From Escherichia phage Ecwhy_1, in sequence record MH791411.1: DNA of 64,000 nt. The stretch is one strand, 5' to 3'. A program made the position numbers and the translations under genes. Shown in pieces: positions 1 through 63,986 of this stretch. The first letter of the stretch is position 1; each line of letters begins with the position of its first letter. The notes below the pieces were generated by a model. The model did no database searches. It saw nothing but the letters and a program-made list of their open reading frames with translations, and was not told the DNA's origin.

Positions 1-566
1 TGTCTAAATGTTTGAATGCATTAATGATACCACGTTTAAAATCACGCTGCATAGTACTGAATAGATTCTCAGGGAACACTGTAATAGGTGACATTGATTT
101 AAGAATGTATGTATCTTTAGCATTCTTAATATACTCAATGAAGCAGTAGTTAACGTCAGGCTCGATAGAACGATCCGCGTTATGATACCAGTGCTTAAAC
201 TCACTGTACTCAGCAAACTTATGCTGGCGTAATGCGTTACAATCCTCACACAATGCAGTCATGTTCTCTTTATCATTACCGCCCTGAAGACAGTCCAGTA
301 CATTATGGTCTAACGTCATGCGTACAAGGCGTTTCCCTTTAAGTACATAAGGTCTGAATTTATAACGGTCTTTAGTACTGTGCTTATGTAAAGTGAATAC
401 CACATTGGATTCACCACAACAATCACATTTAAAGCCATCACGTGACATTACATGAATGAGTTTTCGAGTATTTGGTCCGAACTCAGATTTAGTAATGTTG
501 CCGACAATTTCTGATGGTTCGTAGTATTTTGAATTCCGGCGAATCAATTCATCTATAGTGCTCATT
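1..566 (-). CDS. HNH endonuclease-like protein, partial (ORF runs past the window start)
   Basis: Hand translation from ATG at 566 stays open to position 1 (not in the supplied track, which has no stop to close it). Contains CDCCGES ... LDHNVLDCLQGGNDKENMTALCEDCN, a Cys-rich HNH-type motif. Confidence 0.55.
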
Positions 567-794
567 TTATATTTCTCCAGCAAGACACTCAAAAGTGACT
601 TTTTTAACTTCGATAACTCGTACCAAATAGTATCCATGAAAGAAATTAAAACCAATCATTTGTGATAATGCATCTGCTTCAGATTTTGCACGGATACATG
701 ATAGATATAGTTCTCGTATATCGCCATCCAACGATGCTTGTTTCTCGTCATTGATAACAATAGAACGAATCTCAAAACGAACACCATAACTCAT
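567..794 (-). CDS. hypothetical protein
   Basis: Six-frame ORF, 75 aa, abuts neighbours on the same strand. Confidence 0.4.
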   Translation of the reverse strand: MSYGVRFEIRSIVINDEKQASLDGDIRELYLSCIRAKSEADALSQMIGFNFFHGYYLVRVIEVKKVTFECLAGEI

Positions 795-1000
795 TCTGTT
801 TGTCCAACAATTAGTTTTTCTTTAGTATTACTATTGTAACACCACATTAATTCTTCACCAACTGTTCTAAGTGAAACGCTGTTTACTTGTTCATACGTAC
901 TGTCACGTACTGCAATGCATTGATTCATTGAATTCATTGGGGTGATTTGTACACCAGATTGTGGTGAAAGAGCAATAATTAAAAAGATTACTGAATTCAT
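791..1000 (-). CDS. hypothetical small protein with hydrophobic N-terminus
   Basis: Six-frame ORF, 69 aa; 4-nt overlap with the downstream gene; promoter-like element upstream. Confidence 0.45.
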   Translation of the reverse strand: MNSVIFLIIALSPQSGVQITPMNSMNQCIAVRDSTYEQVNSVSLRTVGEELMWCYNSNTKEKLIVGQTE

Positions 1001-1064
1001 TAGATATTCCTCAATGGTTAATCATCCATCTCTTCGAGATGTCTGTTCGCTTCTAATACTACGT

Positions 1065-1093
1065 ATTCTACGCGAATGAATCATAACTGTCAA
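1065..1093 (-). promoter_or_regulatory. sigma-70-type promoter (TTGACA, 17-nt spacer, TAGAAT)
   Basis: Minus-strand reading TTGACA-N17-TAGAAT about 60 nt upstream of the ORF starting at 1000. Confidence 0.45.
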
Positions 1094-1627
1094 GGACTTT
1101 TAATATTGACGGGATTTGAGGAAGGGATTTTTCTTCCCCCCGCACGGAGGGAAATTTGACGCTGATGGTATCAGAGCTATTGCATTGAAGATTACTCATA
1201 ACGAGTGCGAAAGCGGGTCATCCTGTTTCTCTCTACTTCAGTTTCATATGACGGTCTACACTTTTAAACATAGTGTATCTTCATTAAGTATCTATGCAAT
1301 CAAATACTTAATGTGAGTACTCAAATTTTGGACGCAACTTTCCTGTACAAAATTCGATAACTCTCCCTTAGATAATTCGTAAGGTGTTATCCTTATATGT
1401 CTATCGAGGAACCACCAGCTATCCTAACGTGGTTCTTTATACAGCCGCATTGCCGTGAGGGGTTCAAACTATGCCCACATCTAACGGGTTTCTTTTGCTG
1501 TTCGCTACAATGAAAAGCTCATCTATCCTTTACATTTTCAAGTGAAGTAGGGGAAGATTGTCAGTACCAGTACTGTCATTGTGATTGTACATAGATCATT
1601 GTATCACCATTAATAAATTTGTCCCAT

Positions 1628-1654
1628 AAAAAAAGGGCTGACCGAAGTCAACCC
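1628..1654 (-). terminator. intrinsic terminator
   Basis: Minus-strand RNA stem GGGUUGAC / GUCAGCCC with UUCG loop followed by a U-run, directly after the sigma gene stop at 1662. Confidence 0.6.
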
Positions 1655-1661
1655 TTTAATC

Positions 1662-2630
1662 TTAAAAATCTTCGAACTCATAACCTTTTGTCTTAACCAT
1701 CTTACGCAGTCGTTCCATTGCTTCAGAGTACTTACGGTGCAATGAAGAACGAGCAGTCATGACCTTACCCTTCTCATCTTCAAAACCACTCTCAATGATT
1801 TCTCGTAGCGTTTCTGGTTCAGAATAAGAACCAATACCATGTACACGTTCAATCAATTCACGGTCTTTGGCAGATAGGTTACTCATCATTTCTGCAATAC
1901 TTTGTACCAGTGGGGTACTGACAGTTTCTACGCCTAAGTTATAATCAGGTTCAACTGAAGTAACAATGTCAGATAATGTACTTTCTGAATCATTACTCAT
2001 TTTCATATTCAATGCTACATAAGTGTTATTGTAAGTTAGACAATTCTTAACGTGTTGAATCTCAATACCAGTCTCTTTTGACACCATCTCAGGAGTTGGG
2101 TATTTACCATGTTTCCTTTGATACTCTTCTACACAACGTTTCACATAAATGTTATTAACACTCATATAACGTGGGAAATGCACTAGATAATTAGCATCTG
2201 CACTTTCGTTATAGATTGTCATGTACACAGTTGTTGTTGCATATGTAATGAACTTAACATTTTTGGTAGTGTCGAACGTATGAATTGCTCGCATTAAACC
2301 TTCAACACCATAAGAAATCTTATCTTCAAATGGGATAAAACATGTACACTTACGTGCAACACTTACTACCATTGGATAGTTGTAGCGAACCAAAAGGTCA
2401 ATGTTCTTTTCAACGTCAATACCATCACGCACTGCTTGGATGAGCATTTCATTCGTTATCCCTTTAGGGCGAGTTAAGCTGATACCTGTTTTTGGTTTCT
2501 CAAACTTGTGACCGTCATGTTCTTCTTCTTCTTCGACGGAATCAAGAGCCTCTAATACGTTGACTTCTTCACTAGCAAAACACTCATCCAGTACTTCTTC
2601 AGAAATTGCATTTAAATCAAGCTTTTTCAC
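1662..2630 (-). CDS. sigma-70 family RNA polymerase sigma factor
   Basis: Region 2-like GVEGLMRAIHTFDTTKNVKFITYATTTVYMTI and region 4-like LSAKDRELIERVHGI...ETLREI...SEAMERLRKM; GTG start with AGGAG RBS 6 nt upstream. Confidence 0.7.
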   Translation of the reverse strand: MKKLDLNAISEEVLDECFASEEVNVLEALDSVEEEEEHDGHKFEKPKTGISLTRPKGITNEMLIQAVRDGIDVEKNIDLLVRYNYPMVVSVARKCTCFIPFEDKISYGVEGLMRAIHTFDTTKNVKFITYATTTVYMTIYNESADANYLVHFPRYMSVNNIYVKRCVEEYQRKHGKYPTPEMVSKETGIEIQHVKNCLTYNNTYVALNMKMSNDSESTLSDIVTSVEPDYNLGVETVSTPLVQSIAEMMSNLSAKDRELIERVHGIGSYSEPETLREIIESGFEDEKGKVMTARSSLHRKYSEAMERLRKMVKTKGYEFEDF

Positions 2631-2652
2631 TTACTTCTCCTAATGAATGAAA

Positions 2653-3150
2653 TCAAAAACGGTATACATTAATATTATCATCGGTATAGATATCATGGTT
2701 ATGAACATCCATGAAGGTATCAAATACCTTATCAAGAAGAGTATTATACTCTTCATGTACTGCTGCATCAAGCATGTATTCACCACCACTACCCATAAAG
2801 AATGTATAATCATTATGGAGATAATCAATCTTCTTGGTAAACTTACCCTTATTAACGATTAAGTGAATGATGTAATCTTTTGACACAAGAACACAGTGAC
2901 AACTCGCCTTGCGGTCTGGTATCACAGTCTCTTGTGAAATCAAGTATCTCAGTACTTTGTTAATTTCACTAACCTCACCGCAAGCACTAAACAGTCGGTC
3001 GTGTACATACAATGTTTTTTGTGAAACTACACCATAACTAAGTTTTGGTTTCAACGGGAATAGGTTCAAAAATGAACGTTGCTCAGTTGATGTCACTTTT
3101 GAATCAGTAAGTAATACTCCCAAGCGTTTATCAATATAAACAGTCGTCAT
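2653..3150 (-). CDS. HslV / proteasome beta-like Ntn-hydrolase peptidase
   Basis: N-terminal MTTV (Thr after Met, as in HslV MTTIV); central K..LY.D..FS..G block; FMGSGGEYMLDAA matches the HslV AIGSGGPYAQAA region. Confidence 0.5.
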   Translation of the reverse strand: MTTVYIDKRLGVLLTDSKVTSTEQRSFLNLFPLKPKLSYGVVSQKTLYVHDRLFSACGEVSEINKVLRYLISQETVIPDRKASCHCVLVSKDYIIHLIVNKGKFTKKIDYLHNDYTFFMGSGGEYMLDAAVHEEYNTLLDKVFDTFMDVHNHDIYTDDNINVYRF

Positions 3151-3151
3151 A

Positions 3152-3571
3152 TTAAACCTTATCTAAAAATTTATCATAGATATAATATTCTTTATCGTTG
3201 AATACATTAATTCCAGGATCGAAGCGTTGAAGTGTATTCATGTATAATGAACTTTTTAAATAAAAATACAATGCAACAAATTCAGATATATGCATATTCT
3301 TTTTATTATTACATAAATTCTTTAGCATTTTAATGCTATCAAAATCATCTTTATCATATCTGTACTGGAAAAAATTGTATCTATTTGAACGGCACTCATA
3401 GATGCGAAGTGCCATTATATCAATACATGCTTGAGATTTACAGTACTTATTCAATACAGGGTAATCACCAGTACATAATGCTACGAAGATTTTATGTGCA
3501 AGCGTAGCTTTACCTTCAATCGTATAATAACCAAAAAACTTAATGATTAAGTAATGTATAAATCTAAGCAT
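3152..3571 (-). CDS. hypothetical protein
   Basis: Six-frame ORF, 139 aa, very AT-rich. Confidence 0.45.
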   Translation of the reverse strand: MLRFIHYLIIKFFGYYTIEGKATLAHKIFVALCTGDYPVLNKYCKSQACIDIMALRIYECRSNRYNFFQYRYDKDDFDSIKMLKNLCNNKKNMHISEFVALYFYLKSSLYMNTLQRFDPGINVFNDKEYYIYDKFLDKV

Positions 3572-3576
3572 TGGAT

Positions 3577-3837
3577 TTAGAATTTCTCCGAAATTACAAG
3601 TGTATCATCATAGTCATCAGCAACGGAGTTCAGTACTTTCAAATTACTTTCACCAGAAATACTTTGTACTTCGTTCAAAAGATAGTTTAGATCAACTTTA
3701 GTTACTTTTTCTGAATCAAACACACAGAAAGTCAATTCAGCGTTTGGACAGATCTTCTTCAGATTATCAGCAACAACTTGTTTGAAGTTAAAAGATGGGG
3801 AAGCAACCAGGTTAACTGCAACGAGAATAGATTTCAT
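3577..3837 (-). CDS. hypothetical protein
   Basis: Six-frame ORF, 86 aa. Confidence 0.45.
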   Translation of the reverse strand: MKSILVAVNLVASPSFNFKQVVADNLKKICPNAELTFCVFDSEKVTKVDLNYLLNEVQSISGESNLKVLNSVADDYDDTLVISEKF

Positions 3838-3911
3838 AATGTTTTCCTTTTTAGCTGATAATTAAATTAGGAGCACATTGTACTCCATGTTATTGGTTAA
3901 GTCAAATACTT

Positions 3912-4163
3912 TTAGATACCGAGTACTGAATTCAATTCTTTACGCTTGTTATATGAATCAGATTCAAACTTACTTTTCTTATTGAAAAGGGATTCGATAT
4001 CCTTATAGATAGCTTCGATGGATTTAGTTACAACCCATTCGGATTCCTGAAGCATAGCTTGAAGACGTGCGTACTCAACTTTGATAGTACTGCGAAGTTC
4101 TTCACAAGCTTCTTCGTTCTTAATTAGTGCTTCACTAAGTTCTTTGACCTTATCGATGTTCAT
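3912..4163 (-). CDS. hypothetical coiled-coil protein
   Basis: Six-frame ORF, 83 aa, charged heptad-like sequence. Confidence 0.45.
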   Translation of the reverse strand: MNIDKVKELSEALIKNEEACEELRSTIKVEYARLQAMLQESEWVVTKSIEAIYKDIESLFNKKSKFESDSYNKRKELNSVLGI

Positions 4164-4222
4164 AAGTTCCTTACCATTTCCCAGTTTTGATGTAATAATT
4201 ATATATGACTCAATAACTCACG

Positions 4223-4648
4223 TCAACTGTTTTCCGTACCTTTCTCTGCCATTTTGGTGATGTGCCATTTGAGTACTGATTTGTGTACCATAAAAAATGT
4301 GAATGCAAAGACTGTAATGGCTGCTGAAGTAACACTATTAGATAAAGACCCAAGTTGGATATTAGTACCTAAAATAACAATAAATGGATACAACACAATC
4401 AATCTACTGTAAGGTTCGTCTCCAGTATCACGGATAAATCCAAGCCTTTCATGATCAGTATCCATAGTGACAATTGGACAGAACATAAGTGCAGACATAA
4501 CAGCAATACCAATTTGTGCTACATTGGCAATTGTAAACCACAAAGGATTTAAACCATATGAAATGTTGTTTTCAGTACAGTAATATCCAAATGTATTGAT
4601 TGCACAAACTAAAAATACAAAAATACAAATCTTATTGTATCCCCTCAT
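4223..4648 (-). CDS. hypothetical membrane protein
   Basis: Six-frame ORF, 141 aa, several hydrophobic segments. Confidence 0.5.
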   Translation of the reverse strand: MRGYNKICIFVFLVCAINTFGYYCTENNISYGLNPLWFTIANVAQIGIAVMSALMFCPIVTMDTDHERLGFIRDTGDEPYSRLIVLYPFIVILGTNIQLGSLSNSVTSAAITVFAFTFFMVHKSVLKWHITKMAEKGTENS

Positions 4649-5082
4649 TTGTTTAGCTCCGTTAATTTTCGTTTAACTTCAAGATCATAATACTCATCAG
4701 CATATGAGTTTTGAACAGTTCTTGTATATTCCAACATAACAAACATAGAACCACACACCCACAGATAAGTATAGTAATCAAATACAAAAGCATAGATAAT
4801 ACATGGTATTAAAATAAATGTAAACACAAAACTATATCTCTTAGTACCGAATACTTTAACAAAAAGCAGACGGCGGCAATCACGTGCAAATGTATGAATA
4901 CATATAGAAAATATAATCAATGAATACCATGAAATGCCCTGGATTACACCTGAAACATTTACAAGTTTATGTCCGTCTGGAAACCCCAGTGCATTAAGCA
5001 CTGGAGCCATAACCCAACCAATAATAGCAATAAGAAATAGATACTTTGCATTGCTAAGTGTGAACATTATTTCAGTCCCCAT
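4645..5082 (-). CDS. hypothetical membrane protein
   Basis: Six-frame ORF, 145 aa, hydrophobic segments; 4-nt overlap with neighbour. Confidence 0.5.
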   Translation of the reverse strand: MGTEIMFTLSNAKYLFLIAIIGWVMAPVLNALGFPDGHKLVNVSGVIQGISWYSLIIFSICIHTFARDCRRLLFVKVFGTKRYSFVFTFILIPCIIYAFVFDYYTYLWVCGSMFVMLEYTRTVQNSYADEYYDLEVKRKLTELNK

Positions 5083-5525
5083 GCCTTTTTAATAGCATCC
5101 ACTGCGTTCTGGTCTACGACTTCCTGTTTAGTAGCACTGGTTTGTAGTTTATCAATTACATAGTTCTTAGCATCTTTTTCAATCATAAACTTACCATCAA
5201 CTAAACACCCAAATACTTTAGAGTTACGTGCTGGGTATGTCCCGATTTCATCAAGAGTACGAACTTTCTTATCAACTACAATTGCTTTGATGTAACCAGT
5301 TTCCAGTACTGTAGTGATGACAGTCATTTCGATTGCAATTGGTGACTCTTCCCAGAATGCAATCCACTTGGTGAAGCTGCGGTCCGGTGAATCTTTTGTT
5401 GGCTTCAGTTTAATTGCACTGTTGAAAATGTACTGCTTGAATCCATCTTCAACCACTTCACTGATACTTAGGTAACCTTCACGTTCTTCTGCGTTGCGTT
5501 TGAATTGAGTAGCTAATACGTCCAT
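5067..5525 (-). CDS. hypothetical protein
   Basis: Six-frame ORF, 152 aa. Confidence 0.5.
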   Translation of the reverse strand: MDVLATQFKRNAEEREGYLSISEVVEDGFKQYIFNSAIKLKPTKDSPDRSFTKWIAFWEESPIAIEMTVITTVLETGYIKAIVVDKKVRTLDEIGTYPARNSKVFGCLVDGKFMIEKDAKNYVIDKLQTSATKQEVVDQNAVDAIKKAWGLK

Positions 5526-5578
5526 CGTTAAATCCTCTTGTCAGTTATTGCGGTACGAAGCTATTATACTGCCATTTA

Positions 5579-6022
5579 CTATTTGGAGTCAACACATTTC
5601 AACAAGTATTTTTCTATGTATCTTATATGTGATGGTGGTAACAGTAAGTTTTCGTATCTAACCCTGTACACACTACAATCACCTAGATGAAAGTGACTGG
5701 TAGGATACAAGTCAGTTCTAATACTAACACGTTTACGATTATCAGTAAAGTTAATTAATGATTTTGGATTGTTATTAGCATGAGTTCTTACAAAGTATTC
5801 AATTTCATTGAGTGCTTTTTCGTCGTATACATACTTGTCAAACACACCTAGTGTAAAGTACCTTGGATGGTACATATATGAGAATAACAATGCAGGAATA
5901 TACTTCTTTATCCCTTCGTGTTTTGCAATAGCTGAAGCATATGCAAAATGTGATGCATCAGAGAAGATGTTAAGAAAAATGAAATATGACACTAATAAAC
6001 CTAGAATCAGCAAAAGTGTCAT
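5579..6022 (-). CDS. hypothetical protein with N-terminal membrane anchor
   Basis: Six-frame ORF, 147 aa, hydrophobic N-terminus. Confidence 0.5.
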   Translation of the reverse strand: MTLLLILGLLVSYFIFLNIFSDASHFAYASAIAKHEGIKKYIPALLFSYMYHPRYFTLGVFDKYVYDEKALNEIEYFVRTHANNNPKSLINFTDNRKRVSIRTDLYPTSHFHLGDCSVYRVRYENLLLPPSHIRYIEKYLLKCVDSK

Positions 6023-13553: not shown

Positions 13554-13570
13554 AGTGTACCTTTATTTTG

Positions 13571-13643
<73 letters not shown>

Positions 13644-13646
13644 TGA

Positions 13647-13729
<83 letters not shown>

Positions 13730-13780
13730 AGAAGTAAGATAACCAACAAGTCTCCATACTCTTTCGCATTGAGGGGAGGC

Positions 13781-13841
<61 letters not shown>

Positions 13842-13901
13842 GCCAAGTGTCGGCATAGGTGCAGCACTACAAAGTACTTCAAGCTGTTTAGCAGTTTCTT
13901 C

Positions 13902-13983
<82 letters not shown>

Positions 13984-13985
13984 TA

Positions 13986-14111
<126 letters not shown>

Positions 14112-14130
14112 GCATACTCGAAGTACCTCT

Positions 14131-14168
<38 letters not shown>

Positions 14169-14169
14169 A

Positions 14170-14222
<53 letters not shown>

Positions 14223-14267
14223 ATAGGCACACACGGAACTGCTTTATAAGCTACTGAATCGGGAATC

Positions 14268-14798
<531 letters not shown>

Positions 14799-14807
14799 AT
14801 TTGTTTC

Positions 14808-14993
14808 CTATGAAATGAATGTAGCGTTAATTCCCATTATAAATGAAAATATACCAAACAATATCAACCCGATTGGTACAAAGATCATAGATCTATTTCC
14901 ATGTTTCGATAAAAATCGTTCAACTGTAATTAAACGTATTGATATCGGAACCATTATAATAATATACAATATTGAAAGAATTAAAAGTTGCAT
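14808..14993 (-). CDS. hypothetical small membrane protein
   Basis: Six-frame ORF, 61 aa, two hydrophobic segments. Confidence 0.4.
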   Translation of the reverse strand: MQLLILSILYIIIMVPISIRLITVERFLSKHGNRSMIFVPIGLILFGIFSFIMGINATFIS

Positions 14994-15006
14994 TTTAATT
15001 TCCTAT

Positions 15007-15826
<820 letters not shown>

Positions 15827-16189
15827 ATCACCAACTTTAATTAAAAAAAATGGATGGTGACGCTTTTAAACGCCGCTGTTAATTCAGCTTTATAACCACC
15901 CGTTTTAACTTGCCTTTCGGCTACCTTGACGTGGGGCGTACAGGCTACTAAAAGCAACTACTGTAAACATATTTCCACGCCTTACCCTTTTAAATAAAAG
16001 TCCATCCGGTTTTCCAGTTTGGTGAAGGACTGTCACCTCTAGTTTAAACCTGCTAGTCAAGTAATAATTGCCTATCGTCCAATTATCAAACCCGTCTAGG
16101 TTAACATTCACCACTTCCTAGAGTACCAGAGATCTTGTTCTGGATTGCATCGACGTAACTTACACCATATACGTCTGATTGTGGAATTC

Positions 16190-16214
16190 ATTATATCAGT
16201 ACTGAACTATTTAG

Positions 16215-16218
<4 letters not shown>
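16190..16218 (-). promoter_or_regulatory. consensus sigma-70-type promoter TTGACT-N17-TATAAT
   Basis: Exact -35 and -10 hexamers with a 17-nt spacer on the minus strand; followed by about 340 nt without a convincing ORF, then the tRNA cluster. Confidence 0.6.
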
Positions 16219-16640
<422 letters not shown>

Positions 16641-16648
16641 CTTTTTAT

Positions 16649-16809
<161 letters not shown>

Positions 16810-16813
<4 letters not shown>

Positions 16814-16970
16814 ATTCGTACCAGTAGTTCAATTAAGTACATTTCATATGCTGGATCGTTGATAAGTTTATCATACAGATGTGGCTCTGAAATGAATTCC
16901 CAATGATACTTTAGCCATTTACCGATACCCGAATATCTAAAATTAATGTCATTCATCCATTCTTCATGTG

Positions 16971-16974
<4 letters not shown>
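16810..16974 (-). CDS. MTHEEW-family small protein (54 aa), copy B
   Basis: Hand translation: MTHEEWMNDINFRYSGIGKWLKYHWEFISEPHLYDKLINDPAYEMYLIELLVRI; ATGA stop/start overlap with copy C. Confidence 0.5.
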
Positions 16975-17240
<266 letters not shown>

Positions 17241-17243
17241 TTT

Positions 17244-17359
<116 letters not shown>

Positions 17360-22751: not shown

Positions 22752-22778
22752 TTTTAATACCCTTTTATTTCTTTTTTA

Positions 22779-22799
22779 TGAAAAACCCTCATCATTGAG
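22779..22799 (-). terminator. intrinsic terminator (short stem)
   Basis: Minus-strand stem CCUCA / UGAGG followed by a U-run. Confidence 0.4.
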
Positions 22800-22869
22800 G
22801 AATGGTTTGCATTTTTACATCTGCCGATAATATACATTATATCATGCTTTTCAGCGTTGTCCCAAAAAA

Positions 22870-27655: not shown

Positions 27656-27670
27656 AGCGTGGATCTGTAA

Positions 27671-28201
27671 TTAATCGAGTATAGTAACTTCAATCAAACG
27701 AATTTCGATGAATTCGTTTTCAGTTTCCCATGATGAACCTAATTTCTTATTAAGTTCAGTTTTAACATCACTTTTAAATTTTCCCATAGTATTAGGAATA
27801 ATTTGTTTGGTTAGTTTGTCATAACCACAATAAAACATAGGTTTCTCCCTTCGAGATATTAGCTCAACAAAATCCTTTGGATATGCAGGTATATTATGCA
27901 TCACTTCATGAATGCACTCAGTACTTGAATCTTGTACTTTGTACATTACATTAAGTTTACCTTTGAAAGTGCGAATCATATCAACAATAATACCTTTACC
28001 GGATTTAAGTAAAGTTCCATTCTTTGTATGAGAACAATAGAATACCTCATCACCAATATTAGGATAGTACAAATTAAATTCTAATTCTTCCTTTGATGAC
28101 TGACGTTGAAATTTCATTACACGTTCAGTATAGGTGGGGTAGTTCTTCATGTTCAAAAGAATATCTCTCTTAGTAAGTGTGATATAACTGGCATAGTCCA
28201 T
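27671..28201 (-). CDS. hypothetical protein
   Basis: Six-frame ORF, 176 aa; overlaps the methyltransferase gene by about 50 nt. Confidence 0.45.
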   Translation of the reverse strand: MDYASYITLTKRDILLNMKNYPTYTERVMKFQRQSSKEELEFNLYYPNIGDEVFYCSHTKNGTLLKSGKGIIVDMIRTFKGKLNVMYKVQDSSTECIHEVMHNIPAYPKDFVELISRREKPMFYCGYDKLTKQIIPNTMGKFKSDVKTELNKKLGSSWETENEFIEIRLIEVTILD

Positions 28202-32215: not shown

Positions 32216-32236
32216 AGAACCTCAAAATTTAGACAA

Positions 32237-32260
32237 GAAAAATGCCCCGAAGGTCGGGGC
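32237..32260 (-). terminator. intrinsic terminator
   Basis: Minus-strand stem GCCCCGA / UCGGGGC with a 4-nt loop followed by a U-rich tract. Confidence 0.55.
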
Positions 32261-32372
32261 AGTACGAAAAAGATTTTGTACAAAAAAGGGGAATAATACA
32301 ATAAAATAATAACGCATCATTATTATGTAAGGGAGGAAAGTAACATGATAATGTTAACCATTACTGGTATAA

Positions 32373-38785: not shown

Positions 38786-39475
38786 TTAGTCCAGTTTAAG
38801 TTTATTGAGACAATAGGAGATTTGGATAGCTTCACGTGCTGCATCATACAGAGGGTGATGTAATTCCAAACCATTAATACCACATTTTTCTGCATACTTC
38901 ACGAATTTAGCTAACTGCACTGACACAATCTCATCCATTTCGGTGCGAGCTTCTTCATTCAATAAACGCTTCAGGGTTCGTGCGTTTTCAGGAGCATCAT
39001 ATTTCCACAAATCACCAACATTCAATAGTTTTAAGTGATTAGCTTGTAAAATACTACAGTCGAAGTTGCAGCCATTTCCCCAAATTGAATGTTCAACCTC
39101 TTTACCATAACAATCAAAACGGATATCTTTCCAGAAATCGACAATACCATTAGAAGTAAAGATTTGTTTGGATTTACCATTAGGACCGTACAATTCTGGT
39201 GCAACAAGTGCCATAGTACTGGCAACTTCAGCATATGCATTAGGATATTCCTTCTGACATGTATTCATCCAGAAATCCATTGCACCTGCATCTGATTTCA
39301 GCCCAGCGTTGACTTGTGCTTGGTATGGTAACTTAACATATACAAATTGTCTGATATCATGTTCAGGTTTACTTGGAACAACTACTGCTGCATAATTTGG
39401 AATAATAATATCATAACCAGAGTTTTCAGGAGTACCGAGAGCTTCGATATCAACACTAACATGACGGCGTTTCAT
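38786..39475 (-). CDS. DEDDh-type 3'-5' exonuclease (DexA-like)
   Basis: Exo I-like VSVDIEALGT and Exo III-like HHPLYDAAREA; size (229 aa) close to T4 exonuclease A. Confidence 0.55.
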   Translation of the reverse strand: MKRRHVSVDIEALGTPENSGYDIIIPNYAAVVVPSKPEHDIRQFVYVKLPYQAQVNAGLKSDAGAMDFWMNTCQKEYPNAYAEVASTMALVAPELYGPNGKSKQIFTSNGIVDFWKDIRFDCYGKEVEHSIWGNGCNFDCSILQANHLKLLNVGDLWKYDAPENARTLKRLLNEEARTEMDEIVSVQLAKFVKYAEKCGINGLELHHPLYDAAREAIQISYCLNKLKLD

Positions 39476-44167: not shown

Positions 44168-44794
44168 TTATTGGTAATATTTCGACAGTACTGAATAGAT
44201 TTTTAAACGTAGTTCATCCCAGTTGTTAACATAGTCATACCCATAACCATTTTTATACATATGATTGTGGGACGCTCGCATCATAACTGATGGGATACCC
44301 AATTCCATTGATGTTTCAATATTATTGATATAATCATCAATCATCAGTTTTACGTCATATCGTTCTTTTAATTCTACTAGTGCTTCATGCTTAGATTCAT
44401 TCATTTCAACAATGATGATTTCATCAAAACATGTCTCACCAAATACATGCATAAGATTAGTATTGCGAAGTACCTCGCTATAACCTTTCTTACCACACTT
44501 AGTCAGTACTATGAATTTTTCCTTGTAAAAACGATCACGCAGTTCATGCATAATACTTACAGTGTTAGTTTCTACAGGTTTTAGTAATCCAAACATATAC
44601 GAACGTTGATTGAATTCAGTAATGATCTCTTGAACTTTTTCTCGTGAAACACCAAACCATTCAGATAAATCGTATGCGAGTGGGTATGGTGTTGTTGGGT
44701 TGATATCATATTGGAGTTTTGCGTATTCTCCTAATGAACCAATGTGATCTAGTAGTACTTCATCACAGTCGAATACAATACAACGGTCTTTCAT
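44168..44794 (-). CDS. HAD-superfamily hydrolase (possible 5'(3')-deoxyribonucleotidase)
   Basis: Motif I IVFDCDEVLLDH (DxDxV), Lys in LTKCGKKGY, motif IV-like KLMIDDYINN. Confidence 0.5.
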   Translation of the reverse strand: MKDRCIVFDCDEVLLDHIGSLGEYAKLQYDINPTTPYPLAYDLSEWFGVSREKVQEIITEFNQRSYMFGLLKPVETNTVSIMHELRDRFYKEKFIVLTKCGKKGYSEVLRNTNLMHVFGETCFDEIIIVEMNESKHEALVELKERYDVKLMIDDYINNIETSMELGIPSVMMRASHNHMYKNGYGYDYVNNWDELRLKIYSVLSKYYQ

Positions 44795-45747
44795 TACATG
44801 TTCCCCGAACAGATTAGGTCAATCTCACACAGTAATGCACTGAGATTCATTTCACGGTCAGACACAGTAGCTTGTTTAACAACAGCGTCACGAATCTTAA
44901 CCTTAATTTTCATTAGAGTAATTTCATCAGTACTGAACATTTCTGCATTACGATACAGATAAGAGAAGAATGCATCCATCTCATCATCAGGAATGTTTTG
45001 CACGATCTGCTCACGCATTTGACGAATGTTACCAGCTTTTAGTGCATCAATAATGGCAGTACGATACCCAGCAGAGTTCTCAATACTGTCTTCTAGTTTT
45101 ACAAGTTTACCATCGACTACTGAACTTTGCAATACGTTTAGCGTTTTGCGGAAATCAGGATATGAAGCATTGATGTATTTTTGTACTTGTTCAATACTTT
45201 CATCAGTACTTAGATCTACTCCTTCTGCCAATAGTACGTTGTAGATGCGTGACATGAATTGTTCCATATCATGCTTCTCAATGGTGATGACCTGAACACG
45301 AGAGATAATAGGTTTCTGAATCTTATGTGGTTCATTACTGGTAAGAATGAAACGAGCATTTTCATGGTAATCTTCCATGACACGTTTCAAGCTACCCTGT
45401 GCTTTGTGGTTCATTTGTTCCATTTCTTCCAGAACAAATACACGATAACGACCAAAACATGATAGTTTTGCTGCTGCATCAATTTTGTCACGAACAGCAT
45501 CGATACCTTCATCTGACATATTCAGTGTTGTTACATCACTAGGGTCAAGGTGTCCGTTAGCTTCCAGACCATTCAGTAGTACTTTGATTGCTGAAGTTTT
45601 TCCTGTCCCTGCTGGTCCAAAAAATCCAATATGTGGGATATCACCAGTACGAATCCATTCTTCCATCTTCTGACGTAGGGCTTCGTTCTTAGATACATAA
45701 TCTTCCATAGTTTGTGGGCGGTATTTTTCAGTCCATAATGTAGTCAT
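44794..45747 (-). CDS. clamp-loader AAA+ ATPase subunit (T4 gp44 / RFC small-subunit-like)
   Basis: EKYRPQTMEDY, Walker A GPAGTGKTS, Walker B VFVLEE, sensor ILTSN, SRVQVI; aligns with T4 gp44 from memory. Confidence 0.8.
   Translation of the reverse strand: MTTLWTEKYRPQTMEDYVSKNEALRQKMEEWIRTGDIPHIGFFGPAGTGKTSAIKVLLNGLEANGHLDPSDVTTLNMSDEGIDAVRDKIDAAAKLSCFGRYRVFVLEEMEQMNHKAQGSLKRVMEDYHENARFILTSNEPHKIQKPIISRVQVITIEKHDMEQFMSRIYNVLLAEGVDLSTDESIEQVQKYINASYPDFRKTLNVLQSSVVDGKLVKLEDSIENSAGYRTAIIDALKAGNIRQMREQIVQNIPDDEMDAFFSYLYRNAEMFSTDEITLMKIKVKIRDAVVKQATVSDREMNLSALLCEIDLICSGNM

Positions 45748-54435: not shown

Positions 54436-56578
<2,143 letters not shown>

Positions 56579-56615: not shown

Positions 56616-57678
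<1,063 letters not shown>

Positions 57679-59981: not shown

Positions 59982-61290
<1,309 letters not shown>

Positions 61291-61367: not shown

Positions 61368-63986
<2,619 letters not shown>

Follow-up and report, generated by a model that had tools for sequence, protein, structure and literature searches.

The 64,000-nucleotide (nt) stretch of Escherichia phage Ecwhy_1 DNA analysed here (sequence record MH791411.1; one strand, 5′ to 3′), hereafter the window, carries on its minus strand a gene for a 322-amino-acid (aa) sigma-70-family sigma factor (1662..2630) beside a gene for a 165-aa protein resembling the peptidase HslV (2653..3150), and the question raised by this locus is whether the two products act together. 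An initial annotation, which placed both open reading frames (ORFs) at these coordinates, took the pair to suggest a module for takeover of host transcription or for proteostasis. The explanation that we favor, with moderate confidence, is that the two genes are read as part of one unit, that the sigma factor directs the host RNA polymerase to a phage-specific promoter class, that the peptidase is an active N-terminal-threonine hydrolase made early in infection, and that the adjacency of the genes reflects synteny. The finding is ordinary for this group of phages: a known class of sigma factor and a new, very divergent member of the orphan HslV-like peptidases.

Positions 1-6000 of the window share 99.6% identity with Escherichia phage WPEC3, 99.1% with fEgEco12, and approximately 86% with 121Q and PBECO4, which belong to the genus Asteriusvirus, 350-385-kilobase jumbo myoviruses of the RaK2-like group. 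Judged by these identities, the DNA is that of an Asteriusvirus-like jumbo coliphage. The closest complete annotated genome, fEgEco12, was used for whole-genome context; its counterparts of the two genes, g519 and g518, are labeled 'RNA polymerase sigma factor' and 'ATP-dependent protease subunit HslV', respectively. The T4-like replication genes noticed initially are borne out by fEgEco12 (99% identical), in which topoisomerase II, a clamp loader, a helicase and RNase H are annotated.

The peptidase and sigma genes are the final two cistrons of a four-gene unit that runs from 3837 to 1662 on the minus strand. Because both are minus-strand genes (3150→2653, then 2630→1662), the peptidase gene lies upstream of the sigma gene in transcription, not downstream as initially described. 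The 22-nt spacer between them (2631..2652, minus) contains a Shine-Dalgarno sequence, AGGAG, 6 nt ahead of the GTG start codon of sigma, and a terminator scan found no terminator-like site in it. An intrinsic terminator with an 11-base-pair stem, a TTCG loop and a T7 run (1632..1657, minus), identified by the same scan and from the sequence, lies 5 nt past the sigma stop codon. The unit begins with an 86-aa ORF (3577..3837, minus; phrog_26969, E = 1.3e-45; no Pfam family), followed by a 139-aa ORF (3152..3571, minus; phrog_37211, E = 9.2e-86) that stops 1 nt ahead of the peptidase start codon. Since the 139-aa ORF has no homology to the genes at the same position in RaK2, Munch, Hallingskeid and metagenomic contigs, it is not a conserved partner of the peptidase. 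A conserved upstream partner was rejected in general, as the upstream genes are unrelated across lineages.

Ahead of the unit, a consensus scan placed a promoter-like sequence of the host type, TTGACT-17-TACAAT (3877..3905, minus; 10/12 match), in a segment (3701-3900) with 97-98% identity to 121Q, above that of its flanks. The minus (coding) strand of the window has 17 sequences of the form TTGAC.-N16-18-TAYAAT, with 0.47 expected, and the plus strand has none; examples are found at 7411-7384, 57751, 39553, 25365, 18159, 14042 and 4226. Because some of these sites also precede replication-region genes, host-type promoters are not limited to a discrete early block of the window. In the related phage CBB, the sigma gene lies within an early region rich in RpoD-type promoters, and the model proposed for that phage comprises early promoters of the host type, promoters of a second class and, for late transcription, ATAAATA promoters (PMC5259590); the 17 coding-strand sites agree with this early-region picture. 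Most likely, the host sigma-70 RNA polymerase reads the four-gene unit early, a timing that we infer, from the consensus-type promoter and ends at the strong intrinsic terminator.

The assignment of the 322-aa protein to the sigma-70 family survives profile searches. Region 2 matches Pfam Sigma70_r2 (PF04542, E = 2.6e-9; score 37.2 bits, cut-off 24) and region 3 matches Sigma70_r3 (PF04539, E = 1.3e-11; 44.9 bits against 25.3), phrog_351 'RNA polymerase sigma factor' is matched at E = 2.7e-48, and the best relatives of solved structure are SigB of Mycobacterium tuberculosis, a SigA, and RpoS/RpoD of Escherichia coli (E = 1e-17 to 1e-13). The NCBIfam models of RpoD, RpoS, SigB and FliA give E values of 1e-27 to 1e-12, all far below their cut-offs (for example, 2.4e-27 and 96 bits against 354 for RpoD_Cterm, and 81.8 bits against 378.7 for rpoS_proteo). 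According to these scores, the phage sigma is a member of the sigma-70 family and is not an orthologue of RpoD or RpoS. Regions 2 and 4 had both been called recognizable; region 2 passes the Pfam cut-off, whereas region 4 is divergent, carries an insertion and has no Pfam match, even with the isolated fragment as the query. Full-length alignments to SigB/RpoS nevertheless extend through region 4 to residues 309-320, and the C-terminal 97 aa alone match the sigma-4 region of RpoS at E = 0.024, with six of the seven hits being to RpoS. Region 4 is thus predicted to be present but atypical. No Pfam match to region 1 (1.1 or 1.2) was found in the N-terminal 79 aa.

Five phage orthologues were aligned with E. 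coli RpoS and RpoD. All of the phage sigmas keep FSTYAT, including the equivalent of Tyr430, and share a conserved acidic N-terminal region of ~60 residues. The WW433/434 dyad is replaced by TT, SS, AS, VS or TA, and Q437, T440 and R441 are not kept in any of them. An insertion of 8-10 residues (GF.D.KGK) separates the two helices of the helix-turn-helix in region 4.2 of all of the phage sequences. Regions 2.1-2.4, 3 and the predicted region 4 are collinear with those of E. coli RpoD/RpoS and M. tuberculosis SigB, whereas identity to these proteins is only 22-24% and the equivalents of R584-Q589 are also changed in the phage sigma. Because the residues that read the -10 and -35 elements are changed, the phage sigma should read promoters unlike the host consensus.

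Full-length orthologues of the sigma gene were found by tblastn in ~70 phage records, including those of GAP32, CBB, Serratia BF, Yersinia fHe-Yen9, Erwinia pEa_SNUABM and Xanthomonas XbC2. According to Iyer et al. (PMC7824862), all Group 2 (RaK2-like) jumbo phages encode two types of sigma factor, one minimal and gp55-like, the other 'close to the cellular RpoD', and the RpoD-like sigma has been described as a hallmark of Group 2 in the Sharanji paper (PMC11895373). The sigma analysed here shares full-length orthology with the Group 2 proteins RaK2 ORF244, CBB_513, that of GAP32 and 121Q gp167 (59% identity to 121Q, 33-40% to RaK2/CBB/GAP32), together with the acidic N-terminus, the loss of the WW dyad, the 4.2 insertion and the location in an early-type gene block. 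It differs from them in nothing of kind, and the class to which it belongs is already known, so that the sigma itself is not new. The gene (1662-2630) is, however, the most divergent segment of its neighborhood in comparison with 121Q, being 59% identical in amino acids and, in DNA, 48-78% identical per 100 nt against 85-100% in its flanks and ~86% for the region. This divergence suggests either that alleles have been exchanged or that promoter specificity has evolved fast.

The protein was initially contrasted with the short late sigma gp55 of T4. The two are indeed not homologous in architecture, and a local tblastn search with gp55 gives E = 0.31 at the sigma locus; the contrast was nevertheless incomplete, since fEgEco12 has, in addition, a late sigma of the gp55 type, g336, which matches phrog_12791 at E = 1.4e-152 and, in blastp, T4 gp55 at E = 3e-4. 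This separate gene lies outside the window at fEgEco12 190974-191912 (L020:40974-41912) and adjoins homologues of gp47/46, as in T4. Judged from these matches, the RpoD-like sigma is an extra factor beside the gp55-type sigma and not its replacement. Like T4 gp55, a phage-encoded factor that redirects the host core RNA polymerase, the 322-aa product would bind the host core polymerase and direct it to a phage-specific promoter class, and late genes would be handled by the gp55-type sigma. Redirection of host RNA polymerase, as proposed in the initial annotation, is therefore the standard and plausible reading of the sigma gene; its coupling with the peptidase, which was proposed together with it, is not upheld, as discussed below.

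The best candidate for the promoter class read by the phage sigma would combine an extended -10 element, TGnTATAAT, with a non-host -35 element, GGGACA, ahead of tRNA genes and of a structured RNA element. Every copy of the RNA element is preceded by the extended -10 TGnTATAAT, and the -35 element ahead of it is GGGACA in Asteriusvirus and Munch and TGAAAC(C/G/A) in CBB, Serratia BF, Yen9-04 and XbC2. The TGAAAC type corresponds to the 'divergent RpoD-like' promoter class of CBB and GAP32 (PMC5259590). In the window, the pattern [GA]G[GA]AC[AG]-N12-14-TGnTAYAAT has five matches, all of them on the coding strand, with 0.04 expected. Promoter-like sequences of the form (T-rich)-G(G/A)GACA-N13-TGATAYAAT have their first bases at 60325, 22863, 17371, 15640 and 1625 on the minus strand, and GAGACA is also found at ~53600. 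Two of the five GGGACA-type sites precede tRNA-Ser genes and one (1625-1598, minus; GGGACA-N13-TGATACAAT) lies directly ahead of the structured RNA element. The CBB-type -35 TGAAACG is not enriched in the window (15 found against 8.9 expected). In phages with GGGACA, the recognition helix of region 4.2 reads R-S-S-L-H-R, and in those with TGAAAC it reads K-A-T-L-S-R; this co-variation of the -35 motif with the 4.2 helix in two phage groups is suggestive of the sigma reading this promoter class.

Two other features of the window touch on these promoter-like sites. The non-coding stretch that follows the site at 22863 (22752-22863, minus) ends in a hairpin and a T-run (cctcaatgatgaggg ttttt) and may encode a small RNA of 60-90 nt. 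The tRNA genes of the window number six (13570-17333, minus), namely Thr(tgt) in two copies, Asn, Met, Ser(gct) and Ser(tga).

The sigma terminator is separated from the gene that follows by 640 nt (1001-1640) that appear 'empty', and positions 1001-1500 share 96-100% identity with 121Q. This gap contains one copy of the RNA element, of ~450 nt (1096-1590, minus), directly past the sigma terminator and the promoter-like site; the copy is 96-100% identical to that of 121Q, against 48-78% for the adjoining sigma gene. A blastn search found the element in 61 records of RaK2-like jumbo phages, at 3-5 copies per genome and always in unannotated or dubiously annotated gaps, with ~70% identity over 400 nt even between phages with ~35% protein identity. 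There are four copies in fEgEco12 (including L018:9916-10390, L019:10671-11081 and L020:45789-46152), and the element is found also in L025-L030.

Analysis of ten copies with RNAalifold gave 64 pairs in 14 helices, and 37 of the 64 pairs show compensatory double changes. The proportion of paired cells in the alignment is 97.1%, a value reached in 0/500 shuffles, and drops to 78.5% on shuffling. When the partners were slid by 1-3 columns, 33-43% of cells were paired and 7-12 pairs had double changes, against 37 in the real register. Because this alignment was itself the source of the structure, part of the pairing excess is expected, and the count of double changes is the stronger measure. The folding energy of the block as a single sequence is unremarkable (z = -1.4), so that the structure is visible only comparatively. 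Searches of Rfam 15 gave no family at E ≤1 in the window block or at E ≤10 in six other copies, and no paper was found that describes the RNA element or the peptidase subfamily. In the related phage PA5oct, four abundant non-coding RNAs of 236-619 nt, defined by RNA sequencing, have no known homologues (PMC7318152). On the strength of its covariation, the element is a previously undescribed family of structured RNA. The most valuable outcome of this analysis is the combination of a covarying RNA family with a matching non-host promoter class, which provides a testable hypothesis for the target of the phage sigma.

Is the second gene of the pair a peptidase of the HslV type? The 165-aa protein has no match in Pfam or NCBIfam, including PF00227 at its gathering score, and only 2 of 23 relatives match PF00227 (best E = 1.3e-3). 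It matches phrog_1040 'peptidase HslV family' (E = 2.8e-6), as do 13 of the 23 family members, and belongs to a separate small cluster, phrog_24804. The family is very small: a set of 5.8 billion proteins yields 11 clusters of it, and one of 1.84 billion yields 17 representatives. In direct searches against solved structures, the single sequence gave a chance hit to OspA only and an 11-sequence profile gave nothing. With hhalign, the family aligned with E. coli HslV at low probability in the GSGG segment only, and no similarity was detected between the family alignment and the single sequence of the fEgEco12 paralogue g216. No sequence-level link to Anbu, BPH or archaeal connectase was found; these proteins are no closer than HslV or the 20S beta subunits, and differ in length and oligomeric state.

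Evidence for the fold comes from an AlphaFold2 (AF2) model. A shallow alignment gave an unusable model (predicted local distance difference test score 54), whereas a deeper alignment gave a usable one, in which the protein is predicted to adopt the αββα fold of N-terminal nucleophile (Ntn) hydrolases with HslV as its best structural match. In an alignment of 23 sequences reaching down to 20% identity, every member has M1, T2, T3, D16, G58, G120, S121, G122 and D153, and at least 90% of them have K45. The profile of these 23 sequences retrieves almost exclusively proteasome beta5, beta6 and beta8 chains, at marginal E values of at least 0.045. In its register, TT..DSR falls on Thr1/Asp17, residues 38-68 fall on residues 26-57 of beta6, which places K45 on Lys33, and GSGS...D.YS..N.Y falls on Gly128-Ser129-Gly130/Asp166/Ser169. 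The protein accordingly belongs to the Ntn hydrolases of the proteasome/HslV superfamily (MEROPS T1-like) and has the complete set of catalytic residues. The initial identification as an HslV-like N-terminal-threonine hydrolase stands on both fold and residues, and the possibility that the catalytic threonine and lysine are missing is countered by the invariance of Thr2 and by the predicted position of K45 on Lys33. A threonine at position 2 permits removal of the initiator methionine. Removal of Met1 would expose the N-terminal threonine and leave the peptidase catalytically competent.

The protein shares with HslV (ClpQ) the Ntn αββα fold, a Met-Thr-Thr start that has no propeptide ahead of it, a comparable length (165 aa, 176 aa in HslV) and equivalents of Asp17, Lys33 and Gly-Ser-Gly, whereas identity is 15-19%, Pfam and NCBIfam give no match, and the phage has no HslU gene. 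The protein is not classed as HslV proper because HslU, the defining partner, was searched for and not found. The initial annotation saw no HslU in the window, and this is confirmed in that the only ORF of at least 100 aa with a canonical Walker A motif is the clamp loader (44794-45747). A local tblastn search for HslU in fEgEco12 1-364,700, which is the whole unique sequence, the rest of the record being a repeat of its beginning, hits only the Walker A motif of g327. One fEgEco12 gene of HslU length, g308 (442 aa), was rejected as HslU; it is MoxR/AAA_3-like and gives weak AAA hits only. In all phage records, tblastn with E. coli HslU finds homologues mainly in phiKZ-like jumbo phages of Erwinia and Salmonella.

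Other proteostasis genes are present in fEgEco12. The gene g327 encodes a ClpA/B-type double AAA+ unfoldase (168077-170365; L020:18077-20365) and lies among baseplate genes outside the window. A true ClpP is encoded by g207 (PF00574, E = 1.3e-41), and g214 is a ClpP-like 'head maturation protease'. Clustered with these two genes, outside the window, is g216 (85128-85721; L018:35128-35721), the second paralogue of the HslV family, of 197 aa with an MTC... start and a GSGT motif (phrog_1040, E = 2.6e-22). Within the window, a 181-aa ORF (56616-57161, minus) is a weak ClpS-like candidate adaptor (Pfam E = 0.014, below the cut-off; phrog_15940 'ATP-dependent protease'); it is labeled 'protease adapter protein' in fEgEco12 and adjoins an IF3 homologue (57175-57678) and a KTSC-domain protein (55996-56541). 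None of the ClpA/B-type ATPase, ClpP, the ClpS-like adaptor and the second HslV paralogue adjoins sigma, and the proteostasis context initially proposed for the locus is not supported, as these genes sit elsewhere.

Two HslV genes without HslU have been noted in the Salmonella jumbo phage pSal-SNUABM-04 (PMC7823757), and the BFVD contains many proteasome-fold proteins of jumbo phages. Orphan HslV genes in jumbo phages are a recurrent pattern that has already been noted. The protein analysed here resembles the other HslV-like proteins of jumbo phages (phrog_1040; ORF1/ORF116 of pSal-SNUABM-04; 'proteasome subunit beta' of CcrBL9; g216) in lacking HslU, and they are among its structural neighbors in the BFVD; some of their genomes carry two such genes. 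It differs from them in belonging to the separate cluster phrog_24804. Another gene of the window (38786-39475, minus), called 'peptidase' (g432) in fEgEco12, matches the Rv2179c-like 3′-5′ exoribonuclease domain (PF16473, E = 4.5e-9), and its label is probably a mis-annotation.

If the two genes form a functional module, the peptidase might process or stabilize the phage sigma, or degrade host sigmas or polymerase-associated proteins and thereby aid capture of the core enzyme. E. coli HslVU degrades sigma-32. The pair appears to be co-transcribed with a spacer of only 22 nt, and the peptidase, which was found in 51 phage records (Asteriusvirus, RaK2/K64-1, EJP2, Hallingskeid, Munch/7t3/SE_PL and fENko-Kae01), lies immediately upstream of sigma in RaK2 and also in Munch, with 29% peptidase identity. 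Two small ORFs, however, separate the genes in Hallingskeid and contig L009, a terminator is annotated between them in Munch, and each gene occurs without the other. Sigma has other neighbors and no adjoining peptidase in CBB and Yersinia fHe-Yen9-03, the relatives GAP32, Serratia BF and those of Xanthomonas likewise have sigma without the peptidase, and among the phage records of Pectobacterium, Cronobacter, Serratia, Yersinia and Xanthomonas none yielded a detectable copy of the peptidase. In a more distant metagenomic clade, the gene that comes after the peptidase is one for DUF7325 and not sigma. Taken together, this distribution makes such a module quite unlikely, and lineage-specific synteny within an early block explains the adjacency better than obligate functional coupling does.

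A separate question is how the peptidase would work without a cognate HslU. On the favored explanation, it would be made early and act on host or phage proteins, either alone, as orphan proteasome homologues do, or by borrowing the host HslU or the phage ClpA-like ATPase. A more specific proposal, that it substitutes for HslV by docking on the host HslU and redirects HslVU to new substrates, would fit the structural match to HslV, the HslV-like start without a propeptide and the presence of HslU in the E. coli host of a phage that has none; we regard it as unlikely. HslV-like ring assembly and docking of the ATPase cannot be assumed, because H2 is missing from the model and the hairpin is longer. 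A further alternative, which we consider quite unlikely, is that the protein is not a protease at all, being instead a Thr1-dependent transpeptidase/ligase like archaeal connectase, another Ntn amidohydrolase or an inactive structural relic. The full proteasome-type residue set, including the equivalents of Ser129, Asp166 and Ser169, is kept, it is with catalytic beta5 subunits that the profile aligns best, and the invariance of the catalytic residues down to 20% identity argues against a relic. Finally, the locus could be tied together by an RpoD-like sigma dedicated to TGnTATAAT with a genus-specific -35 element, with tRNAs and the structured RNA as its regulon and an ATPase-less threonine peptidase that clears host competitors; we consider this combination unlikely.

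Several observations nevertheless weigh against the favored explanation. Support for region 4 of the sigma is weak (E = 0.024 for the isolated fragment, without a Pfam match), the correlation between the -35 motif and the 4.2 helix covers only two phage groups, and the host sigma-70 needs no phage factor to use promoters with an extended -10. The peptidase model has one helix (60-72) where HslV has H1 and H2, and the hairpin between the equivalents of Asp17 and Lys33 is 13 residues longer than in HslV. The adjacency of the two genes also persists in RaK2, Hallingskeid, contig L009 and as far as Munch despite replacement of the upstream neighbors, which leaves room for a functional link.

Elsewhere in the window, the gaps at 27656-28152, 32216-32372 and 62105-62364 (160-500 nt) contain no ORF of at least 40 aa and no Rfam match at gathering scores. 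The 5′ part of an HNH homing-endonuclease gene (101-400, minus) shares 96-99% identity with 121Q and the adjoining small ORFs (501-1000) share 76-88%, a mosaic that is consistent with exchange of a mobile element.

The peptidase is labeled 'hypothetical' in all but 2 of the 51 phage records (the two are called protease, and several are unannotated), and the present result is useful as annotation in that this 'hypothetical' protein can be assigned to the proteasome/HslV superfamily, its catalytic set being intact. If the peptidase proves to be independent of an ATPase or to hijack the host HslU, it would provide a compact model for proteasome-fold enzymes.

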